64,000 bases of DNA from an uncultured bacterium (GCA_943787795.1 CALSNU010000003.1:480001-544000); one strand, 5' to 3'; positions 48,514 through 62,181 are shown, numbered from the stretch's first letter. Notes: generated by a model from the sequence alone, not told the origin. Program-made: numbers and translations.

Positions 48514-50088
48514 TCAGCGCGTCAGCGGGACTTCGACGATGCACAGCGAGTGGGGGGGCAGGCGGACCGCTCCGGCCTTGAAGGTCACCTCGGTCACCGC
48601 GGGCGTCACTCGGTCCGGATGCTGGATGTCGTTGTAGGCGTCCGGGGACGCTCCGGTGAGGAGCGTCGCCTGGAAGGTGCCATCGACGAGCCGGTCGCCC
48701 AGCTGGAGCGTGCAGGTGACCTCGTCCGAAGGGTGGCGGTTCATCATGGCCACGGACCAGCTCCGACCGGACTCGTCGACCGTGGCGATGGCGTCGACCA
48801 TGGCGACCGAGGCATCACCCTCGAAGAGTCGGTCCGACTCCACGCGCGCCTTGGCGATCCGGGGGCCGAGCTGGTTCGCGTACATGGCCATGGCGTGGAA
48901 GTGGGTCCTGCGGACGACGCCTTCGGGGTGCACGTACAGGGGGCCCGTCTGGTTCACCAGGCACGCGATGTTCGCCATGGAGACCTGGTCCGCGTGGCGC
49001 AGGCAGGCGTTGAAGAAGGACGCGCAGAACAGGGCGTCCGCCATGGTGTAGAGGGACGGCTCGAGGCTCTTGTCGCGGGCGGCGAGCAGGGCGATGACCT
49101 CGGGGTCGCTGGGGTCGACCTGGCGAGGGTGGTGACCTGAGAAGCCCGGGTGGTGCCATGAGCGCAGGTTCCACTCATCGAAGGCGATGGAGAGCCGCCC
49201 GCGCATCCCCGCCCCCTCGATCGCGTCCACCACGGCGCCCACGTGCGCGTCAGGCTTCTCGGACAGCATCATGCAGGCGAGGTAGTCGGGGGTCTGGTGC
49301 TGCTGGTAGTTGGGGACCCAGTACTCGTGGATCGAGAGGAGGTCGAGGTGCTCCCCGGCGGTCTCGAACAGGTAGGGGTCGATGTGAGCCCTGGGCCCGT
49401 GGGAGCCCGAGCAGGTCACCTGGATGCTCGGGTCCACGCGCTTCATGGCCACGGCGGTGTCCCGGACCTTGTCGATGTAGCCCCGCCCGCCCTTCTCGTT
49501 GCCCACGCTCCAGAAGCGCACGCCGAAGGGTTCGGGGTGCCCGTTCCTGGCCCGCAGCTCGGCGAGCTCGCCCTCCGTGTCATTGCAGTAGCCCACCCAG
49601 TCGGCCATCTCCGGGATGTCGGCGAGGCTGTTCTGGCAGATGTACGGCTCCGCCCCGAGCCGCCGGCAGAGCTCGATGAACTCGTGGGTCCCGAAGGTGT
49701 TGGGTTCCAGCACGCCCCAGCGGTCGTCGCGGTAGGGCTGACGCGCCTCACCGACCCCCTTCTTCCAGTGATAGCTGTCCACGAAGCAGCCGCCCGGCCA
49801 GCGGATGACGGGGACCCTCAGCTCCCTGACCGCCTCGATGACGTCGAGGCGAAAGCCTGCGCTGTCGGCGAGCGGTGAGCCTGGGTCGAAGAAGCCGCCG
49901 TAGATCTGCTTGCCCAGGTGTTCGATGAAGCCCCCGAAGATCATCGGGTCGTAGGGCACGGCGGGACCGTCCACGTCGACGACGATGGAGGCCTGATTCG
50001 AGTCCAGGGGGGGCTCCACGCCTGCGATCGCCCCGGCGCATGCCGGCCCCGTCGGCGCGAGGGCGAGGAGGATCAGGGGAACGCTCAT
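48514..50088 (-). CDS. alpha-L-arabinofuranosidase, glycoside hydrolase family 51
   Basis: FIEHLG, RWPGGCFVD.YHW, NTFGTHEF, acid/base GNE, nucleophile FDEWN, MANIA.LVN, LPPHS. Confidence 0.93.
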   Translation of the reverse strand: MSVPLILLALAPTGPACAGAIAGVEPPLDSNQASIVVDVDGPAVPYDPMIFGGFIEHLGKQIYGGFFDPGSPLADSAGFRLDVIEAVRELRVPVIRWPGGCFVDSYHWKKGVGEARQPYRDDRWGVLEPNTFGTHEFIELCRRLGAEPYICQNSLADIPEMADWVGYCNDTEGELAELRARNGHPEPFGVRFWSVGNEKGGRGYIDKVRDTAVAMKRVDPSIQVTCSGSHGPRAHIDPYLFETAGEHLDLLSIHEYWVPNYQQHQTPDYLACMMLSEKPDAHVGAVVDAIEGAGMRGRLSIAFDEWNLRSWHHPGFSGHHPRQVDPSDPEVIALLAARDKSLEPSLYTMADALFCASFFNACLRHADQVSMANIACLVNQTGPLYVHPEGVVRRTHFHAMAMYANQLGPRIAKARVESDRLFEGDASVAMVDAIATVDESGRSWSVAMMNRHPSDEVTCTLQLGDRLVDGTFQATLLTGASPDAYNDIQHPDRVTPAVTEVTFKAGAVRLPPHSLCIVEVPLTR

Positions 50089-50318
50089 GGGGCCATTTAT
50101 CCGGCAGCGGAGGGGGTGGGACAAGCACCATGTGCCGTGCGGTGTGCGTTCTTCAGGGGGCGCTTGCAGGATCATGGTTTTGGGTGCCATGAGGGCTCGG
50201 GCTGTTCGGGGTGAGCTCGGGAGCGACCTCGGGAGCGAGCTTCAGGGCGACCGTGCGCCGCGGGCGTGCTGGAGTTCGGTCCGGACGAGGCGGGCCGGCT
50301 GCTATTCTCTCCGGCCCC

Positions 50319-53300
50319 ATGACCTCCAGCTCCCATCCGGCTTCCAGCTCCAGCTTCGGAGGTGACCTCTCGCCCGGCGAGCTCCTCGACGGGCGCTACA
50401 AGATCGTGGCGATGGTCGGAGAGGGTGGCATGGGGCAGGTCTACCTCGCGGAGGACCAGGTCCTTGGGCAGCCGATCGCCTTGAAGCTCCTGCCCGCGGC
50501 CATGGCGGAGCGCGCTGGAACCCTCGAGAGCTTCCTCGCGGAGGTGCGGCATTCGCGCGAGGTGTCCCACCCGAACGTGGCCCGGGTCCACGACATCGGG
50601 ACCTTCGAAGGCCGGCACTTCCTCACGATGGAGTTCGTCGATGGGGAGACCCTCGAGCGCTTGATCCGCCGCATCGGCAACCTCCCCAACGAGAAGGCGG
50701 CCCAGATCGCCCTGGAGATCTGCGCTGCGCTCACGGAGGTTCACCGCAAGGGGGTCCTGCATCGCGACCTCAAGCCGGCGAACGTCATGATCGACGGGGA
50801 CGGGCACGTGCGGCTCACGGACTTCGGGCTGGCTGTGCTTGAGGCGCAGGGCTCGGACGCGGCGATGGGTGGAACCCCGGCCTACATGGCGCCCGAGGAT
50901 CTCCGAGGGGCGGCCCCGAGCATCTCGGGTGAGGTCTTCGCCCTTGGGCTCGTCCTCTGTGAGCTGTACTCGGGTGAGAGGGTCATGGGGGGGCGCGCCG
51001 TTGACGAGCTGCGCCGCGAGCACAGCAGCGGGGCGCCGGAGCGATCGGTGGAGGTGCTGCGTGAGCGCGCGCCTCGGGTCGCTTCGATTCTCGCGCGCTG
51101 CCTGGCGCCTGAGCCCAGGGACCGACCCGACCTTGAGGAGGTCCGAAGGACCTTCGCGGCCGAGCGCGACCAGCGCCCTCTCACCGAGGCCCGGCTCGAA
51201 GCCGCTGGCGCCGCGACCAACCTCCCGCGACTCCTCACCGGGCTCGTGGGGCGCTCCTCGGAGCTGGACGAGGTCGAGGGGGCCCTGGCGGGGGGCCCGC
51301 TGGTCACCCTCTCGGGTCCAGGTGGGGCGGGCAAGACGCGATTGGCCCTCGAGGTCGGTCACCGCGCCCTCGCGGGGGCCCCAGGGGGCATCTGGATCGT
51401 TGACCTCTGCGGGCTCGGGGACGGGGCGTCGCTCGCTGAACTGGTCTCGACGGTGATCGGTGCCCAGGGGGCCAGCTCGGGCTCCACGCTCGAGGCCGTG
51501 TGTGCGCACCTGCGGGCGAGCCCCGGACTCCTCATCCTCGACAACTGCGAGCATCTCGTCGACGACTGCGCCGCGCTGGCGGCCGAGGTGCTCGCCGGAG
51601 CACCAGAGGCTCGTATCCTGGCGACCTCTCAGGAGCCCCTGGGGCTGGCGGAGGAGCAGGTGGTCCGCCTGGCGCCGCTCGAGGTCCCTGCCGCGGGGGG
51701 ACGGCCCGGCCTGCAGGAGATCGAAGGGTCGGCGGCCGTGCAGCTGTTCGTCGAGAACGCCCAGCTCGCCAACCCCTCGTTCGTGCTCACGGAGGACAAC
51801 GCGCCATCGGTGGCAGAGATCTGCCGGCGCCTGGATGGGATTCCGCTGGCCATCAAGCTCGCGGCGGCGCGCGCAGGGAAGATCTCGCTGGCGGACATCG
51901 CACAACGGCTCGACCAGCGCTTCAGGCTCCTCACCGGCGGACGGCGCGGGGAGCCCGATCGCCAGCGAACCCTCCGCGGCGCGCTGGACTGGAGCCATGA
52001 GCTCCTCTCGGAGAGCGAGCAGCGCGTGTTCCGCTCCCTGGCCGTGTTCGCGGGGTCGTTCACCCTGGCGGCGGCCGAGGAGGTGGTCTGGAAGGACGAC
52101 GATGACCCGTGGAGCTCGCTGGATGACTTCACGCGCCTCGTGGATCGCTCGCTGGTGCTGGTGCGCCATGACCCCGCCGGCGGCATCCGCTACGTCCTGC
52201 TGGAGTCGATCCGCTCCTACGCCGCCGAACGCCTCGAGGCGAGCGGAGCGCGGGACGAGCTGCGCCGTCGGCACCGGGCCTTCTTCCTCGGGCTCGCGCC
52301 GGGCCTGGTGGAGACCGCGCTGAAGGGCCCCGAGGAGGCGGACCGCCGAGTGCTCCTCGAGGAGATGGACAACCTCCGGCTGGTGCTCGAGGTCCTCGGC
52401 CCCGAGGACCTGGAGACCAGCCTGGCGATGGGCTCGGCGCTCGCCGAGTACTGGTTCAACTCGGGGTTCTGGAGGGAGGGCCGCCGCTACCTGCAGCAGC
52501 TCCTCGGTGAAGATGCCGCGCACCTCGACATGGCGCTCCGCCGGGCCCCCTTGTACTGGGCCGGCAAGCTCGCGCAGGGCCTCGGCAAGATGGACGAGGC
52601 AGAGCAGCGGCTGAGTGAGCTCCTCAGGCTGTCGGTGGAGGGCCAGGACCAGGCGTCGCGCAGGCTGGCGCTCTCTGGGCTCGGGAACCTCGCGGAGTAC
52701 CGGACGGAGTACAGCCGCGCCGAGGACCTCTACCGGGAGAGCTTGGAGCTGTGCCGCGAGGCGGGGGATGAGCGCGGGCTCGCGGCAGCCCTGGGCAATC
52801 TGGGGGTCGTCGCCCAGCGGCGCGGCGACATCTCGACGGCTCGCGCCTCCTTCAAGGAGGCAAGCGAGCACTTCGCCGCGCTGGGCCTTCAAGCCCAGGT
52901 GGGCGCTGGCCTCAACAACCTCTGCGTCCTGTCCATCCTCGAGGGTGACATGGATTCGGCGAGGGATCTGGGGATGCAGAGCCTCGCGATCCGGCAGAAC
53001 CTGGGGGACACCTCCGGCGTCGGCGGATGCCACACGAACCTCGCGGCCATCGAGCTTGAGTGTGGGGCGCTTCCGCAGGCGGCGGAGCATGCAGGCAAGG
53101 CCCTGGGCATCACGCTGGAGCTGGGCGCGATGTACCACGTGGCCGGCGTGCTTGACCTGTGCGGTGAGATCCTGGCCGCCGCCGAGCAGCCGGACGTGTC
53201 GGCGCGGCTCTGGGCCCGGGCGAAGCGTCTCCGTGGTGACCTGGGGACGCCCGTCTCCGAGGGTGAACAAAAGGCCCTTGAGCCGAAGATCGCGAGCGTC

Positions 53301-53411
53301 AAGGAGGCGCTCGGCGCAGAGCGGTTCGAGGCAGAGTGGAAGCTCGGTGACGTCGGCGAGCTGGAGCCCCTCGTCGAGGTCCTACGCGAGCGGCTGGGAT
53401 CGCTGGTGTGA
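50319..53411 (+). CDS. Ser/Thr protein kinase fused to STAND (NB-ARC-like) ATPase and TPR repeats
   Basis: GEGGMG, ALK, HRDLKPAN, DFG, YMAPE; Walker A GPGGAGKT, Walker B LILDNCEH, LDGIPLAI; C-terminal TPRs. Confidence 0.92.
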   Translation: MTSSSHPASSSSFGGDLSPGELLDGRYKIVAMVGEGGMGQVYLAEDQVLGQPIALKLLPAAMAERAGTLESFLAEVRHSREVSHPNVARVHDIGTFEGRHFLTMEFVDGETLERLIRRIGNLPNEKAAQIALEICAALTEVHRKGVLHRDLKPANVMIDGDGHVRLTDFGLAVLEAQGSDAAMGGTPAYMAPEDLRGAAPSISGEVFALGLVLCELYSGERVMGGRAVDELRREHSSGAPERSVEVLRERAPRVASILARCLAPEPRDRPDLEEVRRTFAAERDQRPLTEARLEAAGAATNLPRLLTGLVGRSSELDEVEGALAGGPLVTLSGPGGAGKTRLALEVGHRALAGAPGGIWIVDLCGLGDGASLAELVSTVIGAQGASSGSTLEAVCAHLRASPGLLILDNCEHLVDDCAALAAEVLAGAPEARILATSQEPLGLAEEQVVRLAPLEVPAAGGRPGLQEIEGSAAVQLFVENAQLANPSFVLTEDNAPSVAEICRRLDGIPLAIKLAAARAGKISLADIAQRLDQRFRLLTGGRRGEPDRQRTLRGALDWSHELLSESEQRVFRSLAVFAGSFTLAAAEEVVWKDDDDPWSSLDDFTRLVDRSLVLVRHDPAGGIRYVLLESIRSYAAERLEASGARDELRRRHRAFFLGLAPGLVETALKGPEEADRRVLLEEMDNLRLVLEVLGPEDLETSLAMGSALAEYWFNSGFWREGRRYLQQLLGEDAAHLDMALRRAPLYWAGKLAQGLGKMDEAEQRLSELLRLSVEGQDQASRRLALSGLGNLAEYRTEYSRAEDLYRESLELCREAGDERGLAAALGNLGVVAQRRGDISTARASFKEASEHFAALGLQAQVGAGLNNLCVLSILEGDMDSARDLGMQSLAIRQNLGDTSGVGGCHTNLAAIELECGALPQAAEHAGKALGITLELGAMYHVAGVLDLCGEILAAAEQPDVSARLWARAKRLRGDLGTPVSEGEQKALEPKIASVKEALGAERFEAEWKLGDVGELEPLVEVLRERLGSLV

Positions 53412-53469
53412 GGGGCGGCCGCCCTTGGAGGGGCCGCCGCTGCGGATGACCCCGACGGCCGCCGCCACT

Positions 53470-53518
53470 CCCCGAGCGGGCCCCCGAGTGGGCCCCCGCG
53501 CGGCCCCTCCGAGCGGAC
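53470..53518. repeat. degenerate 12-bp tandem repeat CCCCGAG(C/T)GGGC x about 4 between convergent genes
   Basis: Units at 53470, 53482, 53494 and a degenerate fourth. Confidence 0.6.
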
Positions 53519-53575
53519 CGGGTCCACGCGGCGGCTCCCAGTGGCCCTCATGCTTCCCGGCGCGGTTCAGCCTCG

Positions 53576-53788
53576 TCAGGGGGTCGAGAGTTCCCCTTGG
53601 GCGCGCTTGAACCAAGCGATGGTGCGGTCGAGGTGCTTCGTCCCGTAGAGCTTGGTGAACTCCCGGGTCTTGGGATGGTCGGGGTCGCGCATCTCGGCGA
53701 GGCGGGCGTCGACGAACTCCTGCGTCAACGGGATGCCGCAGCGGACTTCGATGCACTCGCGCCAGGCCTCGTAGGTGGTGAGGTTCAT
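53576..53788 (-). CDS. small conserved hypothetical protein (W-x2-C-I-x3-C-G-I-P-L-T motif)
   Basis: MNLTTYEAWRECIEVRCGIPLTQEF...FTKLYG..HL.RTIAWF; strong codon bias; downstream of DUF1826. Confidence 0.75.
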   Translation of the reverse strand: MNLTTYEAWRECIEVRCGIPLTQEFVDARLAEMRDPDHPKTREFTKLYGTKHLDRTIAWFKRAQGELSTP

Positions 53789-53896
53789 GGGTGGGTCGTG
53801 TGAGTCATTCAAAGGGCCTGTCGGCATGGACGGTCCAGCGGCGACGAGGTGTTGAGGGATGGGGCCTCCGCAACGTACGCGCGGGAGGGCGGAGAC

Positions 53897-54571
53897 TCAC
53901 TCGATCCAGTCGAGGGTGAGCACCACCCGTCGTCCTCCGTTGGGCGGGGGCGATCGGTGGACGACGGCGCGCTCGGACGCGTACGGCCAGGTCGTTCCCT
54001 TGAAGATCGCCAGGTGGCCGCAGTCGGAGCGGCCGAGGCGATCCCAGCTTCGGACGAGGCCGGAGGTGGCATCGTCGGGGCCTCCGGCGTGGCCCAGGCG
54101 CGCGCGGTCGACGTCCCGGTCGTCGAGCCACTCCGTCGGGGCCCCAAGGACATTGAGCACCCCCCGCGCCACGACGCGGTCCACATGGAACCGAGGACAG
54201 TGGGGCCCATCGGCCACCAACTGACGAACTCCGACCGCCTCAGCGCCCAGGAGCTGGGCAAAGACGCTGACGGCCTCTTCCACGTAGGCCACCCACGCGG
54301 CCGCGTCGTCGTCGGCCTCGAGCGCGAGTGGCGCGAGCGCGCCTGTGAGTGGCTCGCCCTCGGGCGTCGCGACCTCGGCGGTCCAGCTTCGGGGCCCGGC
54401 CCGGGCCAGCGCCTCCGCATGTGCGAGCGCCGCCGCGCTGGGCTCGATGGGCGCGGTCACGAGCATCACCTCGGGCTCGTAGAGCCGCGCGAGGTCGGGC
54501 AGCGTGGTCCCGCGAACAACGGGCTCAGCGGTCGGGCCCAGGGTGGAGGAGGGGAGGTCTGAGTACTGCAA
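53897..54571 (-). CDS. DUF1826 domain-containing protein
   Basis: CPRFHVD, TEW, FKG, VHRSP, RVVLTLD; TTG start uncertain. Confidence 0.88.
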   Translation of the reverse strand: MQYSDLPSSTLGPTAEPVVRGTTLPDLARLYEPEVMLVTAPIEPSAAALAHAEALARAGPRSWTAEVATPEGEPLTGALAPLALEADDDAAAWVAYVEEAVSVFAQLLGAEAVGVRQLVADGPHCPRFHVDRVVARGVLNVLGAPTEWLDDRDVDRARLGHAGGPDDATSGLVRSWDRLGRSDCGHLAIFKGTTWPYASERAVVHRSPPPNGGRRVVLTLDWIE

Positions 54572-54786
54572 GTCCTGGCGCGGCCAAGGAGTTCAGGCTC
54601 CGCGGCTATGCGGGCAATGCCGCCGGGCCCCATGGGGTTCCGAGCGTGTGGTGATTTTCGCACCACCAGCCCGGCCGCGCCCTGGCCCCGACGCGAACCC
54701 AACCCAGAGCGGGCGAACCGACCGTCAAGGGACTCATCCCAGGACCCCGCGCCCCTCCCCGCCGGCGCCAGCCCAGCCCACGGGCC

Positions 54787-55068
54787 TCACTGGAACGTCA
54801 CTGCCACCGCGTCCGTGAAGCTCGAGGCGGTCTGCCCGCCGACCGCGTCCCGGTACCAGAGCTGGAAGTTCCAGGCCTCGCCCGGCTGAACCGACACCAG
54901 CCCCGTGGGGGTCGACTGGGCGTTGAGGTTGAGGTCGAGGTAGGTCACGCCCGTGGCGCCCGATGTCTGGATTTGTCCCGGGCCGACGAATCGTCCCACG
55001 CTCCCCTGCAGGCAGGGGGCGCCCTGGCTGTTGCTGACGATCGGGACTTAGCCCTGGGTCTGGGAGGT
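54787..55068 (-). pseudogene. remnant of the conserved C-terminal domain of a secreted protein
   Basis: TSQTQG*VPIVSNSQGAPCLQGSVGRFVGPGQIQ...VQPGEAWNFQLWYRD...FTDAVAVTFQ; in-frame TAA at 55048-55050; no N-terminal part. Confidence 0.7.
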
Positions 55069-57923: not shown

Positions 57924-58517
57924 TCAGTCTGACCCGCCGGGGAACCAGGGGTCGATGGGCTCTCCGTCGCGCTCCTTGCCCTCCACGAAGCCTCCGCGCA
58001 GGGACGCCGCGTAGGCGGACACCAGCACGATCTCGTTCATGCTTAGCTGGTCCTTCCAGGCGGGCATGCCCGCCGCGATGGAGCCGCCGATGACGGTCTC
58101 GGCCACGTCCTCCAGTTTGCGCACGCGGATGTAGTGGTCGTCGGTCAGGTTCGGACCGGAGACGCCGGCCCCGTCGCTGCCGTGGCAAGAGACGCAGTTC
58201 GCCGCGAAGATCGACTGACCGACCCTCAGCCAACGGCTCTTCTCGGGGTCGGTCATGAACGCGCCCATGGTCCCCGCGGTCGGCGCCAGGTTGCCGATCT
58301 CCGCGAACTGGGCCTGGAGCTCGGCGGTCACGGCGCGGTCGTAGCTCGCCGCGGGGTCCGTCAGGTCCGGGCGGATCACCGACAGGAAGATCGAGCCGAA
58401 GGCCAGCACCGCAGTGGCCAGCGCCGCGAGGGACCACCAGCCGGGGAGGGGGTGGTCTCCCTCCTCGATACCATGCGCCGGGGGGCGCTGGGGCTGGCTG
58501 GGGTCGAGGTCTGACAT
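57924..58517 (-). CDS. ccoP: cbb3-type cytochrome c oxidase subunit III-like monoheme cytochrome c
   Basis: GIEEGDHPLPGWW N-terminal CcoP motif, TM helix, CVSCH, GPNLTDD, GMPAW. Confidence 0.85.
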   Translation of the reverse strand: MSDLDPSQPQRPPAHGIEEGDHPLPGWWSLAALATAVLAFGSIFLSVIRPDLTDPAASYDRAVTAELQAQFAEIGNLAPTAGTMGAFMTDPEKSRWLRVGQSIFAANCVSCHGSDGAGVSGPNLTDDHYIRVRKLEDVAETVIGGSIAAGMPAWKDQLSMNEIVLVSAYAASLRGGFVEGKERDGEPIDPWFPGGSD

Positions 58518-58581: not shown

Positions 58582-60819
58582 CTACTGGGAGCTCGCCGGG
58601 GTGGGGAGGTCGTCTTGGGAGGGTAGCCCGAGCTGCTGGAGGTAGGCCACCAGGGCGATGGCGTCCGAGGCCTCGAGCGGCACCGGCGCGCCGGCGCCCG
58701 GCCGCAGGAGGGGCGCGCCATTCTGGGCCTCGAACTCCGAGACGAGCTCGGCGGCCTGCGCGGCGGCCCGAGACGCGGCGGCGGTCGGGGTCTTGGTGAG
58801 CCCCGAGCGGTGCACGAGTCGCGGGAGGTCCCTGGGCTGCTCGAAGAGGTGCCGGTAGGACGGCATGATCGAGCCGGGGGAGACGGCCCGCGGGTCGTCC
58901 AGGTGGGTGACCTGCCAGCGCGTGGAGCGGCGGCCACCCTCACGTGCGAGGTCGGGGCCGACGCGGCGGGTGCCCCAGAGGGAGGGGCCGGGCTCCACGG
59001 GTTCGGTGTCGGCGCTGATGGGGCCGTACCGCTTGGTATCCGCGAGCAGGGGCCTCACGGCCTGGGTGTGGCAGGTGGCGCAGCCCTCTCGCTCGTAGAC
59101 CGTGCGGCCGTAGGCCTCCAGCGGCGTGAGGGGCGCGGGGGCCGCCGGGGCTGCGCGGAGCAGGGGGCCGAGCTGGATGGTGCCCACGGCGCCCGCCGAG
59201 AGCAGGATCCAGGAGGCGAGCCGGAGGGGCCGGCGCTCGAGGCGTCGGTGCCACCACAGGGAGCAGAATACCTGCAGGCGGCGGCCCCAGTCGAGGATGG
59301 CGCCAGGGGGCGCGGCGGGCGGCGCTTCCGCTTGGGAGAGGGGCTCGAGAGGCGGCTGAGTGACCGAGGTTCGAGGGTAGGAGGACGGCCGGGCGCCCCA
59401 GGTGCGCAGCAGGTTCCAGGCTCCGGTCAGCGCGCCAGTGAAGAACAGCCCAAGCCCCACCAGGTGCAGGAGCCGGTGTCCCTCCACGCGCGTGACGGCC
59501 TCGGTGAACTCGGGGTGCAGCAGGTGCCCCTCGGGGGAGAGGGCGCCGAGGACTCCAGCCTGGGCTGCGCCGCTGAAGCGGAGGGCCGCGGCGGAGGTGA
59601 GGACCCCGAGGGTGGCGAGCCAGAAGTGGGCCCGGGCCAGGCCGGCCGAGTGGAGCGGCGCGTGGAAGATCCGCGGGGCCAGCCAGTAGGACCCGGCGAA
59701 GACCACCGATGCGCCCCAGCCCAGGAAGAGCAGCTCCTGGTGGCCTTCCACCCAGTCCGTCGAGCCCACCGCCGCGCTCACGCGGCGCAGGGCCAGCAGC
59801 GGGTCTTCGAGGGCCGCCAGGGCGAAGAAGAAGAGGGCGGCGACCAGGAACGGACGCGCAGGGTCCCGTTCGTCGCGGACCGCTCGCTGCCCGTCCCGCA
59901 GGGTGGCAGCCAGGTTCAGCACCCCGCTGGTGGACGGCACCCAGACGAGGAAGGCGAAGGCCAGGGCCAGGGCCAGGGCCCAGCCGGGCGTCGGCGTCAG
60001 GTGCAGGTGACGGGGGGCGACCCACAGCTGGATCAGCAGCAGCGACCACAGGTGGACGATCGCCATGCGGTAGGAGTGCAGGGGCGCGCGGCTGATGCGC
60101 GGCGCGAGGTCGTAGGCCACGCCGAACAGGCCGATCACCAGGAGGGCCCCCGCGCCGTTGCGCACGTACCACCACTGGAGGGCCGCGTCGGCGGCCCCTG
60201 TGAAGGGCGGGCTGCCGAGGATCGGGTGGTGGAGCGACGCGAGGGCCGCCGCGATCTGGAGGCCCCCGAAGAGGAGGGTGGCCGCGAGGTAGAACCAGAG
60301 AGACGCGTACATGTAGCGCTGGCGCCGCCGCGTCAGCGTCATGAGGAGCTGGACGCCGAACAGGGTCCAGAGGCCTGCAAGGGCGAGGTCCACCGGGGCC
60401 TCGGCGGGGGAGAGCAGCCGCGGCTCCAGGGCGCCGCCGGCCACGGTCCACGCGGCCCAACCCAGCCCGAGCTGCCAGCCCCACAGGTGAAGCGTCCCGA
60501 GGGGCGCCGCGGCCATGGGCGCGCAACACAGCCGCTGGGTGGAGTGGTGCACCAGGGCGAAGAAGCCGTTCCCCAGGAACCCAAGGAGCATCAGGAGCTC
60601 TGCGAGGGGGCGGAGGCGGCCGAAGCCCAGGGCCGGGTGCACGTCCGCGAGCTCGGGGTGCACGAGGCTCCAGCCGGCCAGCGTGCAGAGCGCGAGGGAG
60701 GCCAGAGCCCAGGTCCACGCGGCCGCCAGGTAGCGGCGGGCCGGGTCGTCGTCGAGCCAGGGCCCGGTCGCGCCGGGGGGGCGGTCCTGGTCGGTGGCTT
60801 GGCGTGGGGCAGCGGTCAT
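58582..60819 (-). CDS. ccoN: fused cbb3-type oxidase subunit I/II (CcoN-CcoO) homolog with degenerate heme-copper site
   Basis: FGRLRP, WGWQ, QWWY, SYR..IVH.W, TDW..GH, HFWLAT scaffold motifs; CcoO part EGCATCH.Q..RP, WG..R.GPDLAREGG, SIMPSY, ALVAYLQQLG. Confidence 0.88.
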   Translation of the reverse strand: MTAAPRQATDQDRPPGATGPWLDDDPARRYLAAAWTWALASLALCTLAGWSLVHPELADVHPALGFGRLRPLAELLMLLGFLGNGFFALVHHSTQRLCCAPMAAAPLGTLHLWGWQLGLGWAAWTVAGGALEPRLLSPAEAPVDLALAGLWTLFGVQLLMTLTRRRQRYMYASLWFYLAATLLFGGLQIAAALASLHHPILGSPPFTGAADAALQWWYVRNGAGALLVIGLFGVAYDLAPRISRAPLHSYRMAIVHLWSLLLIQLWVAPRHLHLTPTPGWALALALAFAFLVWVPSTSGVLNLAATLRDGQRAVRDERDPARPFLVAALFFFALAALEDPLLALRRVSAAVGSTDWVEGHQELLFLGWGASVVFAGSYWLAPRIFHAPLHSAGLARAHFWLATLGVLTSAAALRFSGAAQAGVLGALSPEGHLLHPEFTEAVTRVEGHRLLHLVGLGLFFTGALTGAWNLLRTWGARPSSYPRTSVTQPPLEPLSQAEAPPAAPPGAILDWGRRLQVFCSLWWHRRLERRPLRLASWILLSAGAVGTIQLGPLLRAAPAAPAPLTPLEAYGRTVYEREGCATCHTQAVRPLLADTKRYGPISADTEPVEPGPSLWGTRRVGPDLAREGGRRSTRWQVTHLDDPRAVSPGSIMPSYRHLFEQPRDLPRLVHRSGLTKTPTAAASRAAAQAAELVSEFEAQNGAPLLRPGAGAPVPLEASDAIALVAYLQQLGLPSQDDLPTPASSQ

Positions 60820-60933: not shown

Positions 60934-62181
60934 TCAGGCGTCTGCGTCTGGGAGCTCCTCGCTTCGGAGCTCATTGCTTCGGAGTTCCTCGGCGAGCCGG
61001 CCGAGGAACAGCCCGACGTCGGTGACGACGCCCACGGTTTGGGAGGAGCCGCGGTCGCTGAGCTTGGTCACCACCGCGGGGTTGATGTCCACGCACACGA
61101 CACGGACCCACGAGGGCAGCATGTTGCCGACTCCGATGGAGTGCAGCATGGTGCTCAGCATCAGGACCATGCCCGCGTCCTCGAGCTGGTGGGCGTAGGC
61201 CTCCTGCGCCTCGATCAGGTCCATGAGGGTGTCGGGGAGCGGGCCGTCGTCGCGGATCGAGCCGGCCAGCACCACGTCCACGTCGTTCTCGACGCAGGCG
61301 TGCATGATGCCGCTCTTGAGCACGCCCGTGCGCACGGCCTCGGGGATCGAGCCCGCGTGGTTGATGCGGTTGATGGCCCGCATGTGGTTCTTGTGCCCCT
61401 CCTCGACGGGCTTACCTGTGCCGAGGCTCACTCCCAGCGAGGTGCCGAAGAAGCAGTTCTCGATGTCGTGCACCGCGAGGGCGTTCCCCGAGAGGATGGC
61501 GTCGACCCAGCCGCCCTCGATCAGGCTGCGGAAGGGGGTGATGCCGTCGGTGTGGATGACCACAGGGCCTGCGACGAAGATGATCCGCTTGCCCTCCTCG
61601 CGGGTGCGGCGCATCTGGCTCGCCACGCGCTTGACGCTGGTCTCGACGCTGCGCTCCGAGCTGATGTCGTTGCTCATGAACGCGAAGGAGGCGCGCTCAC
61701 CCTGGACCTGGTCCAGGTTGACCCGGACACCGGAGACGCCGCAGACCACGAGGTCGCCGGCGCGCACGTCGCGCAGCTTGCGGCAGAGGGGCTCGCCGCC
61801 CTCGAGGACGATCACAGCGTCCATGCGCTGGGCCCCGACGGAGCGCCAGACCCCATCGAGTCGGATCTCGGTGCGGTGATTGGTGGTGGAGTAGAAATCC
61901 TCGGGCACGCACATGTCGCGCTCGATGGGGACGAGCCGGGCGTCCCTGGCCGAGGCGACCGCGCAGCCGAAGGACAGGGTGGCCTCGATGGTCTCGCGCA
62001 GGGTGGCCTCGTCCTCGGCCGTGATCTTGAGCTCGATCTCAGACTCGTCGGCGTGGGTCGTGCCCACCTCGAAGCGCAGGATCTCGTAGGACGCGCCGTG
62101 CTCGAGGATCTGGTCGAAGATCCGCTCGAGGACGTGGGTGTCGATCAGGTGACCCTTGGCGCTGACGGTCTCGTGGAGCAT
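60934..62181 (-). CDS. TIGR00300 family protein (LOR/SDH-related, ornithine cyclodeaminase-like)
   Basis: GHLID, PEDFYSTTNH, QRMDA, FAFMSNDISSER, GNALAVHDIE, LAGSIRDDGPLP, CVDINP.VVTKLSDRGS. Confidence 0.9.
   Translation of the reverse strand: MLHETVSAKGHLIDTHVLERIFDQILEHGASYEILRFEVGTTHADESEIELKITAEDEATLRETIEATLSFGCAVASARDARLVPIERDMCVPEDFYSTTNHRTEIRLDGVWRSVGAQRMDAVIVLEGGEPLCRKLRDVRAGDLVVCGVSGVRVNLDQVQGERASFAFMSNDISSERSVETSVKRVASQMRRTREEGKRIIFVAGPVVIHTDGITPFRSLIEGGWVDAILSGNALAVHDIENCFFGTSLGVSLGTGKPVEEGHKNHMRAINRINHAGSIPEAVRTGVLKSGIMHACVENDVDVVLAGSIRDDGPLPDTLMDLIEAQEAYAHQLEDAGMVLMLSTMLHSIGVGNMLPSWVRVVCVDINPAVVTKLSDRGSSQTVGVVTDVGLFLGRLAEELRSNELRSEELPDADA

Follow-up and report, generated by a model that had tools for sequence, protein, structure and literature searches.

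A planctomycete ccoNO-ccoP pair in which CcoN has lost most of its metal ligands and the heme-c subunits have kept theirs

Oxygen reductases of the heme-copper superfamily are described as needing three CuB histidines and a cross-linked tyrosine, and gNOR as the first family with even a single active-site histidine replaced (PMC11214002, in the portion available). In verrucomicrobial methanotrophs, a cbb3-type oxidase is found beside alternative complex III (ACIII), and the accessible part of that report treats it as an oxidase (PMC8498564). The accessible parts of PMC4013037, PMC11266412 and PMC10556555 contain nothing on lost ligands. Furthermore, full-text literature searches, with subscription journals and supplements outside their scope, found no description of a ligand-less CcoN; sequences of this kind could be contained in the datasets of PMC11214002.

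The window analyzed here, the whole stretch of 64,000 nucleotides, carries on its minus strand a ccoNO fusion gene (58582..60819) that joins a ligand-less CcoN to an intact CcoO. As the preliminary description had stated, its 745-residue open reading frame is uninterrupted by any stop; it scores 510 bits against the fused-form family PRK14485, for which the cut-off is 1080. By phmmer, residues 28-482 align to Pseudomonas stutzeri CcoN (3mk7_A) with an E-value of 1.4e-70 and residues 524-664 to P. stutzeri CcoO (3mk7_B); P. stutzeri numbering was counted along the alignment to 3mk7_A. The CcoN membrane domain (residues 28-475; 59395..60738, minus strand) has kept the fold and lost the CuB site and the low-spin heme ligands. 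The predicted structure has a mean pLDDT of 82 and compares with 3mk7_A at a TM-score of 0.94 (by target length) and an rmsd of 2.1. Sequence, model and tree alike give the protein the fold of a heme-copper subunit I and an affinity to the C family.

We take H60 and H347 to be the ligands of the low-spin heme b, H345 that of heme b3, and H207, H257 and H258 those of CuB. In the window CcoN, four of these six histidines and the cross-linked tyrosine are replaced, two of the histidines by arginine (all codons on the minus strand, from the alignment to 3mk7_A). The bis-His low-spin pair has become Ala73 at H60 (codon GCA, 60601..60603) and Glu362 at H347 (59734..59736). The CuB triad reads Arg/Arg/His instead of three histidines, with Arg220 at H207 (codon CGC, 60160..60162), Arg270 at H257 (codon CGT, 60010..60012) and His271 retained at H258 (60007..60009), and Gln264 (codon CAG, 60028..60030) stands in place of the cross-linked Y251. 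The putative heme b3 ligand and its partner are both present, as His360 at H345 (59740..59742) and Glu338 at E323 (59806..59808). All of these replacements and retentions had been proposed from an alignment by eye, and every codon coordinate agrees with the alignment to 3mk7_A; equally, the KEYAELE stretch, presumably the calcium-site loop, is lost as had been reported and reads RLLSPAE. Three positions that we assume to belong to the cbb3 proton channel, S240, T215 and Y317, are altered in 11 of 11 sequences of the window clade, and Y223 and H243 are kept.

Misalignment as the source of the ligand loss was ruled out by phmmer and profile alignments, and sequencing or assembly error by congeneric genomes with identical residues. 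Five of these genomes cover all eight sites with the same residues (one with Val at the H60 position) and a sixth, partial one has the same residues at the sites that it covers, so that the ligand pattern is not an assembly artefact. In addition, RNA-library contigs over the H207/Y251 and E323/H345/H347 codons show no differences (one study, possibly not independent); in this one study the contigs cover ccoNO patchily, at a depth like that of the rest of the 9 kb. A promoter and terminator scan at ccoNO gave nothing useful. Judged by its residues, the window CcoN has almost certainly lost O2 reduction. Since two of the three CuB histidines, the cross-linked tyrosine and both low-spin histidines are gone, the proposal of the preliminary description that it would be neither a normal O2 reductase nor an NO reductase is supported; the arrangement that marks NO reductases, a non-heme metal site of three histidines plus glutamate (or a variant) together with a low-spin heme, is likewise not found in it. 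The window protein is a pseudo-enzyme form of a cbb3 oxidase.

The CcoO domain (residues 523-732; 58624..59253, minus strand; Pfam FixO, E 1.6e-45) has an intact CxxCH heme-c motif (59068..59082, minus strand) and an intact Met (58864..58866, minus strand). Directly after ccoNO follows ccoP (57924..58517, minus strand), which encodes 197 residues with one CxxCH and a Met. Neither these intact CcoO features nor ccoP figured in the preliminary description. The heme-c subunits of a cbb3 oxidase are therefore both present with their motifs, and a heme-c assembly gene occurs in the host genome, G000. At the window locus there is no ccoQ between ccoNO and ccoP and no ccoG behind ccoP. The upstream neighbor is an ornithine cyclodeaminase-like gene (60934-62181, minus strand; TIGR00300 over cut-off) that is 95-96% conserved in the clade, preceded in turn by a JAB-domain gene and an M19 dipeptidase. 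That ccoNO works together with its ornithine-cyclodeaminase-like and M14 peptidase neighbors was rejected: in G016 these two genes stand side by side with no ccoNO, and other genes flank the pair in the Pirellulaceae. Between the M14 peptidase and a 182-residue gene, which are adjacent in G006, the window has a block (48514-55000) with a 524-residue ORF, a 1030-residue ORF labeled kinase-like by eye, DUF1826 and small ORFs.

The same ligand pattern recurs at the same site in six other congeneric genomes (G003, G004, G006, G009, G015 and G017). Their ccoNO is 80-84% identical to that of G000, compared with 95-96% for the upstream gene; the orthologs in G003 and G017 are truncated where their contigs end, and the frame is open in G000 and four complete orthologs. 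NG86 estimates of dN/dS are 0.16-0.27 over 15 ligand-less pairs and 0.15-0.32 for canonical copies, and by part they are 0.15-0.18 for CcoN, 0.04-0.10 for the former-site segments and 0.09-0.18 for ccoP. A maximum-likelihood codon grid gives an omega of 0.07-0.10 for the ligand-less CcoN versus 0.05 for the canonical one, and an omega of 1 is rejected for the former (2dlnL 652). Constraint on the ligand-less CcoN is somewhat relaxed yet strong. With 71% of all CcoN columns showing no variation in the clade, the invariance of seven of the eight former-site residues is unremarkable. A decaying pseudogene is rejected: neither a broken frame nor a dN/dS near 1 was found, and the pattern recurs in the six other genomes at a dN/dS of 0.07-0.10; orthologs with the shared pattern, for which the preliminary description had suggested a search, do exist. 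A database protein identical to the window protein over the CcoN part (P0004) has a frame shift near residue 465 and has lost the CcoO heme motif, which is either an assembly error or a real break.

An ortholog 81% identical to the window CcoNO is labeled Planctomycetota, and the sequencing runs that hold the stretch are marine. The genome G000, which is 85% complete, contains two heme-copper subunit I genes, the window ccoNO and an A-type oxidase clustered with ACIII; this ACIII-caa3 cluster contains its own heme-c carriers. The check for a canonical ccoNOQP elsewhere in this 85% complete genome found none. The rrf2, CcoQ, G, H, DsbD-like, I and S proteins of the relatives' canonical operons have no counterpart there, with no tblastn match for ccoG, H, I and S and no family match for ccoG. 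Among 18 congeneric genomes, all incomplete, six have only the canonical copy, seven only the ligand-less one, one (G017) both and four neither ccoNO nor ccoP; a working cbb3 was not found in seven of the eight ligand-less carriers, and ccoG occurs in exactly the seven genomes with a canonical copy. The canonical operon of G017 is flanked by genes whose G000 counterparts, at 89-92% identity, lie in the interior of contig C6 with no operon next to them. Because these flanks lie mid-contig, the absence at that site of G000 is not an assembly gap, and the same identities rule out bin contamination as the source of the G017 operon. An early-decay paralog, the second possibility raised in the preliminary description, is not supported given the low dN/dS, the long stem branch of the window clade (1.28 changes per column) and the canonical copy not found in seven of eight carriers. 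The ACIII membrane subunit is present in five of five carriers tested, cytochrome b in none of the 18 incomplete genomes, and bd oxidase, NirK and NosZ over cut-off in none of the five tested carriers. Candidate acceptors for a heme-c relay in G000 are its numerous multiheme proteins and six CCP/MauG-family matches; the genome also has a RegB/RegA-like pair (L084:1525-3698, contig C5).

Ligand-poor CcoNO proteins extend beyond this genus. The 150 best cluster representatives at 50% identity include 42 fusions that cover all sites, 33 with at most four of the histidines and six with all six; these numbers give no prevalence, since clustering merges the canonical proteins into a small number of representatives and the query itself is ligand-less. 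In the 33 ligand-poor clusters among these 150, CxxCH is kept in all 33 and the CcoO Met in 32, and Y251 and the full CuB triad in none; H257 is kept in 3, H258 in 4, H207 in 7, H345 in 9, H347 in 16 and H60 in 17. Both H60 and H347 are kept in 14 of them, neither in 14 and only one in 3 plus 2 (clusters that are not independent), and H345 and the H60/H347 pair are both absent from 14 of the 33. Since H60 and H347 are kept or lost jointly, heme b may still be bound in many relatives, and a single function for the whole class is not required. Canonical invariant columns have a mean retention of 0.85 in CcoO versus 0.52 in CcoN of the ligand-poor clusters. The ligand replacements vary between lineages, with no new ligand in common. 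Common to every lineage are the fold and the two c hemes, and the copper site is kept by none. An organism name is attached to five of the 30 representatives whose records were consulted, or to members of their clusters: four planctomycete and one proteobacterial. In a phylum sample, the family cut-off was exceeded in 55 of 401 genomes, which is no prevalence as only two candidates were scored per genome and ligands were read in the stronger rows only; around G492, 15 of 201 genomes of a Planctomycetota family match the query P0015, all at 41-48% identity and without a close relative, and the ESM Atlas returned COX1-family clusters only, mostly Verrucomicrobiota. Three CcoN-CcoO fusions with zero histidines (P0075, P0112 and P0151) branch with the divergent cbb3-like outgroup and likely represent a further origin of ligand loss. 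Frameshifted ccoNO operons on long contigs (L162-L165 and L167), mostly with shifts in several genes, are probably sequencing errors.

Within the Pirellulaceae, nine relatives of P0015, in records named Rubripirellula, Rhodopirellula or unclassified planctomycete, carry a stand-alone ccoNO-ccoP pair (eight of nine loci extend to ccoP). They have lost H60, Y251, H257 and H347 and keep H345 in nine of nine and E323 in eight of nine; a canonical-scoring CcoN was found in none of the nine genomes and ccoG in none of five tested. Matches occur in 58 of 151 related Pirellulaceae genomes, with the loci read for all 58 (one only in its CcoO part). Twenty of these carry a copy that has lost Y251 and at least one histidine, and only one of them, G839, also showed a canonical copy with the query used. 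The ligand-less copies have a glycosyltransferase gene upstream that also stands before complete canonical operons in 6 of 30 loci, and graded states are found at this shared site: in L143 the ligands are intact and ccoG is gone, in seven loci the tyrosine and part of the CuB set are lost with all b-heme ligands kept, and in the P0015 set the low-spin ligands are lost too. From these living states, and not from a rooted reconstruction, we infer an order of loss. The genome with L143, G771, has a second ccoNO copy (L142) in a full operon elsewhere, and further ligand-poor ccoNO genes are found in L144 (G839, beside a canonical operon in the genome), L145 (G794, no ccoP nearby) and L154 (G772, nested among canonical copies). 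The window genus itself has a second ligand-less ccoNO-ccoP type at another site (L039:462-3337 in G013, and P0011), which keeps only H257.

The formal alignment that the preliminary description had proposed as a check did not restore the His ligands. In a 31-row tree, which left out 74 of 105 rows (mostly long single branches and near-duplicates), the window clade and G013 nest among the canonical CcoNO copies of the genus with a support of 97, and the Pirellulaceae ligand-less copies nest among Pirellulaceae canonical copies. G013/P0011 are sister to the window clade in trees, and H345 is lost there. Grouping the 12 ligand-less rows into a single clade is rejected in the 31-row tree (p-AU 2.7e-18), which rules out one origin for all ligand-less copies despite the grouping of many of them in large FastTree trees, read here as long-branch pull. 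Taken together, ligand loss arose separately in the Pirellulaceae and in the window genus.

With modest confidence, we favor a reading of the dead CcoN as a membrane scaffold that carries a CcoO/CcoP heme-c relay, probably fed by ACIII. CcoN and CcoP are a textbook pair; CcoN would hold the fused CcoO and bind CcoP, and the unit would serve as a two-heme c relay or electron buffer at the outer membrane face. The likeliest electron donor would be ACIII, the only complex III found, and electrons would leave to another acceptor, either the caa3 oxidase (A-type) or a diheme protein of the peroxidase family, and would not pass into CcoN. ACIII is named as the likely donor because a ligand-less CcoN adjoins ACIII genes in L172 and L173: relatives of P0010, whose CcoN has zero histidines, lie directly behind ACIII genes in these two of three loci, the third having only a weak ActF match, and in L172 CcoO- and CcoP-like genes follow. 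Going by the Pirellulaceae, the assembly genes behind ccoP would have been deleted before the tyrosine and CuB ligands were lost and then the b-heme ligands, with the c hemes staying. Such a scaffold fits the pattern as the simplest job, and the persistence of the pair in genomes where no working cbb3 was found means that it is no regulatory subunit of such an enzyme. Of the repurposed roles listed in the preliminary description, the scaffold fits best and a single-heme protein is not favored. An exit of electrons from the c hemes of cbb3 has been described in Neisseria, where CcoP supports nitrite reduction, although by a third heme that the window CcoP does not have (PMC2924362; PMC8552683, available parts). 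Against a relay, the pair is unlinked to ACIII both in G000 and in the Pirellulaceae, and because the ACIII-caa3 cluster of G000 has heme-c carriers of its own, the need for an additional relay is not obvious; the missing linkage and this self-sufficient-looking cluster are the main weakness of the reading. Furthermore, CcoN is about as constrained as CcoO, which is more than a plain anchor seems to need, and both genes are missing from four of the 18 congeneric genomes.

That absence would suit an entrenched remnant without a positive job, in which selection preserves no more than folding or some small residual role before the eventual deletion of the pair, as would the graded loss series at one site, the divergence of ccoNO ahead of its neighbors (80-84% against 95-96% identity for the upstream gene), the drift of ligand positions to Ala, Leu or Arg and the frameshift behind the CcoN part of P0004. 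However, a useless 2.9-kb pair should have been deleted or broken, as ccoQGHIS were, and none of the examined genomic ligand-less fusions with an intact CcoO motif contains a stop; the frameshifted operons retrieved still had ccoG, with shifts in other genes or with canonical ligands. A dN/dS within two-fold of working copies and heme-c motifs kept in 33 of 33 ligand-poor clusters among the 150 best also make a remnant unlikely. A further reading is a single-heme protein, in which His360 and Glu338 would bind one high-spin heme with His271 and the two arginines on the distal side, for peroxide reduction or gas sensing fed by CcoO. Heme peroxidases have a His-carboxylate proximal pair with a distal His and Arg, a likeness to the window site. 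H345, E323, H258 and both arginines are invariant in 11 of 11 clade sequences, with synonymous changes in the Arg codons, the former-site segments have a dN/dS of only 0.04-0.10, the independent Rubripirellula set that lost H60 and H347 keeps H345 in 9/9 and E323 in 8/9, and H345 co-occurs with E/D323 in eight of nine clusters (p 0.056). Yet seven of eight invariant residues are expected at 71% column invariance, the sister lineage G013/P0011 lost H345, its retention in 9 of 33 clusters is below the mean of 0.52, His to Arg needs one base change, and the calcium loop and low-spin heme that would feed the site are gone, so that we hold this reading to be distinctly unlikely. Its fuller form, a new one-heme, copper-free membrane enzyme or sensor (His360-Glu338, a His/Arg distal pocket, fed from the CcoO heme) reached twice, here and in Rubripirellula, is more doubtful still; if true, it would be a heme-copper-superfamily protein with peroxidase-like or gas-sensing chemistry.

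A signaling role, in which the dead complex would modulate a redox kinase of the RegB/PrrB type, like the cbb3 of Rhodobacter sphaeroides, is very unlikely. In G000 the ACIII-caa3 cluster is immediately preceded by genes for the RegB-like kinase and the RegA-like regulator (both below family cut-offs), and cbb3 is reported to inhibit PrrB, but this signal is tied to oxidase activity (PMC12492659, as far as available), the kinase is also found in G016, which has no ccoNO or ccoP, and no gene linkage connects it to the pair. Finally, a working O2 or NO reductase with an unfamiliar ligand set is barely credible. The fold is intact in the model, and heme-copper families with one histidine replaced exist, such as gNOR (PMC11214002, in part), but here four of six histidines and the tyrosine are replaced, two of the former by arginine, S240, T215 and Y317 are changed in 11/11 sequences, ccoG, H, I and S were not found in G000, and the replacements differ by lineage without a shared new ligand.

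The repeated retention of dead copies suggests that cbb3 has a second job that outlasts O2 reduction. If scaffold and c hemes were kept several times under near-normal selection after catalysis was lost, working cbb3 oxidases probably share that job, and the dead copies would isolate it for study. The Pirellulaceae series gives a likely order for the dismantling of a respiratory enzyme, visible in living genomes; new here are this series and the separate Planctomycetota origins of ligand-less CcoN. As databases name these ligand-less proteins cbb3 oxidase subunits, surveys that use ccoN as a sign of low-oxygen respiration miscall these marine planctomycetes.

Compared with described systems, the window pair shares with cbb3 CcoNOP (P. 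stutzeri 3MK7; fused form PRK14485) the fold, the CcoN-CcoO fusion, the ccoNO-ccoP order and the heme-c motifs. Unlike it, the pair is without four of six histidines, the tyrosine, the calcium loop and three presumed proton-channel residues, as well as ccoQ, G, H, I, S and rrf2, and it persists where no canonical copy was found. The cNOR, qNOR, eNOR, gNOR, nNOR and NOD families of the same superfamily also do without the cross-linked tyrosine, but combine a low-spin heme with a metal site of three histidines (in gNOR, two plus Asp), whereas the window CcoN has one of three histidines and neither low-spin ligand (PMC11214002, portion available). The orphans CcoN3 and CcoN4 of Pseudomonas aeruginosa are likewise extra ccoN genes outside the main operon, but form active oxidases with shared CcoO and CcoP, while the window CcoN brings its own CcoO and CcoP and is without an active site (PMC10556555, available part). 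The P0010 family also combines a ligand-less CcoN with intact CcoO- and CcoP-like cytochromes; there, however, the genes are separate, stand behind ACIII, have zero ligand histidines and are 24-29% identical, whereas the window gene is a stand-alone fusion that derives from the genus's own cbb3.
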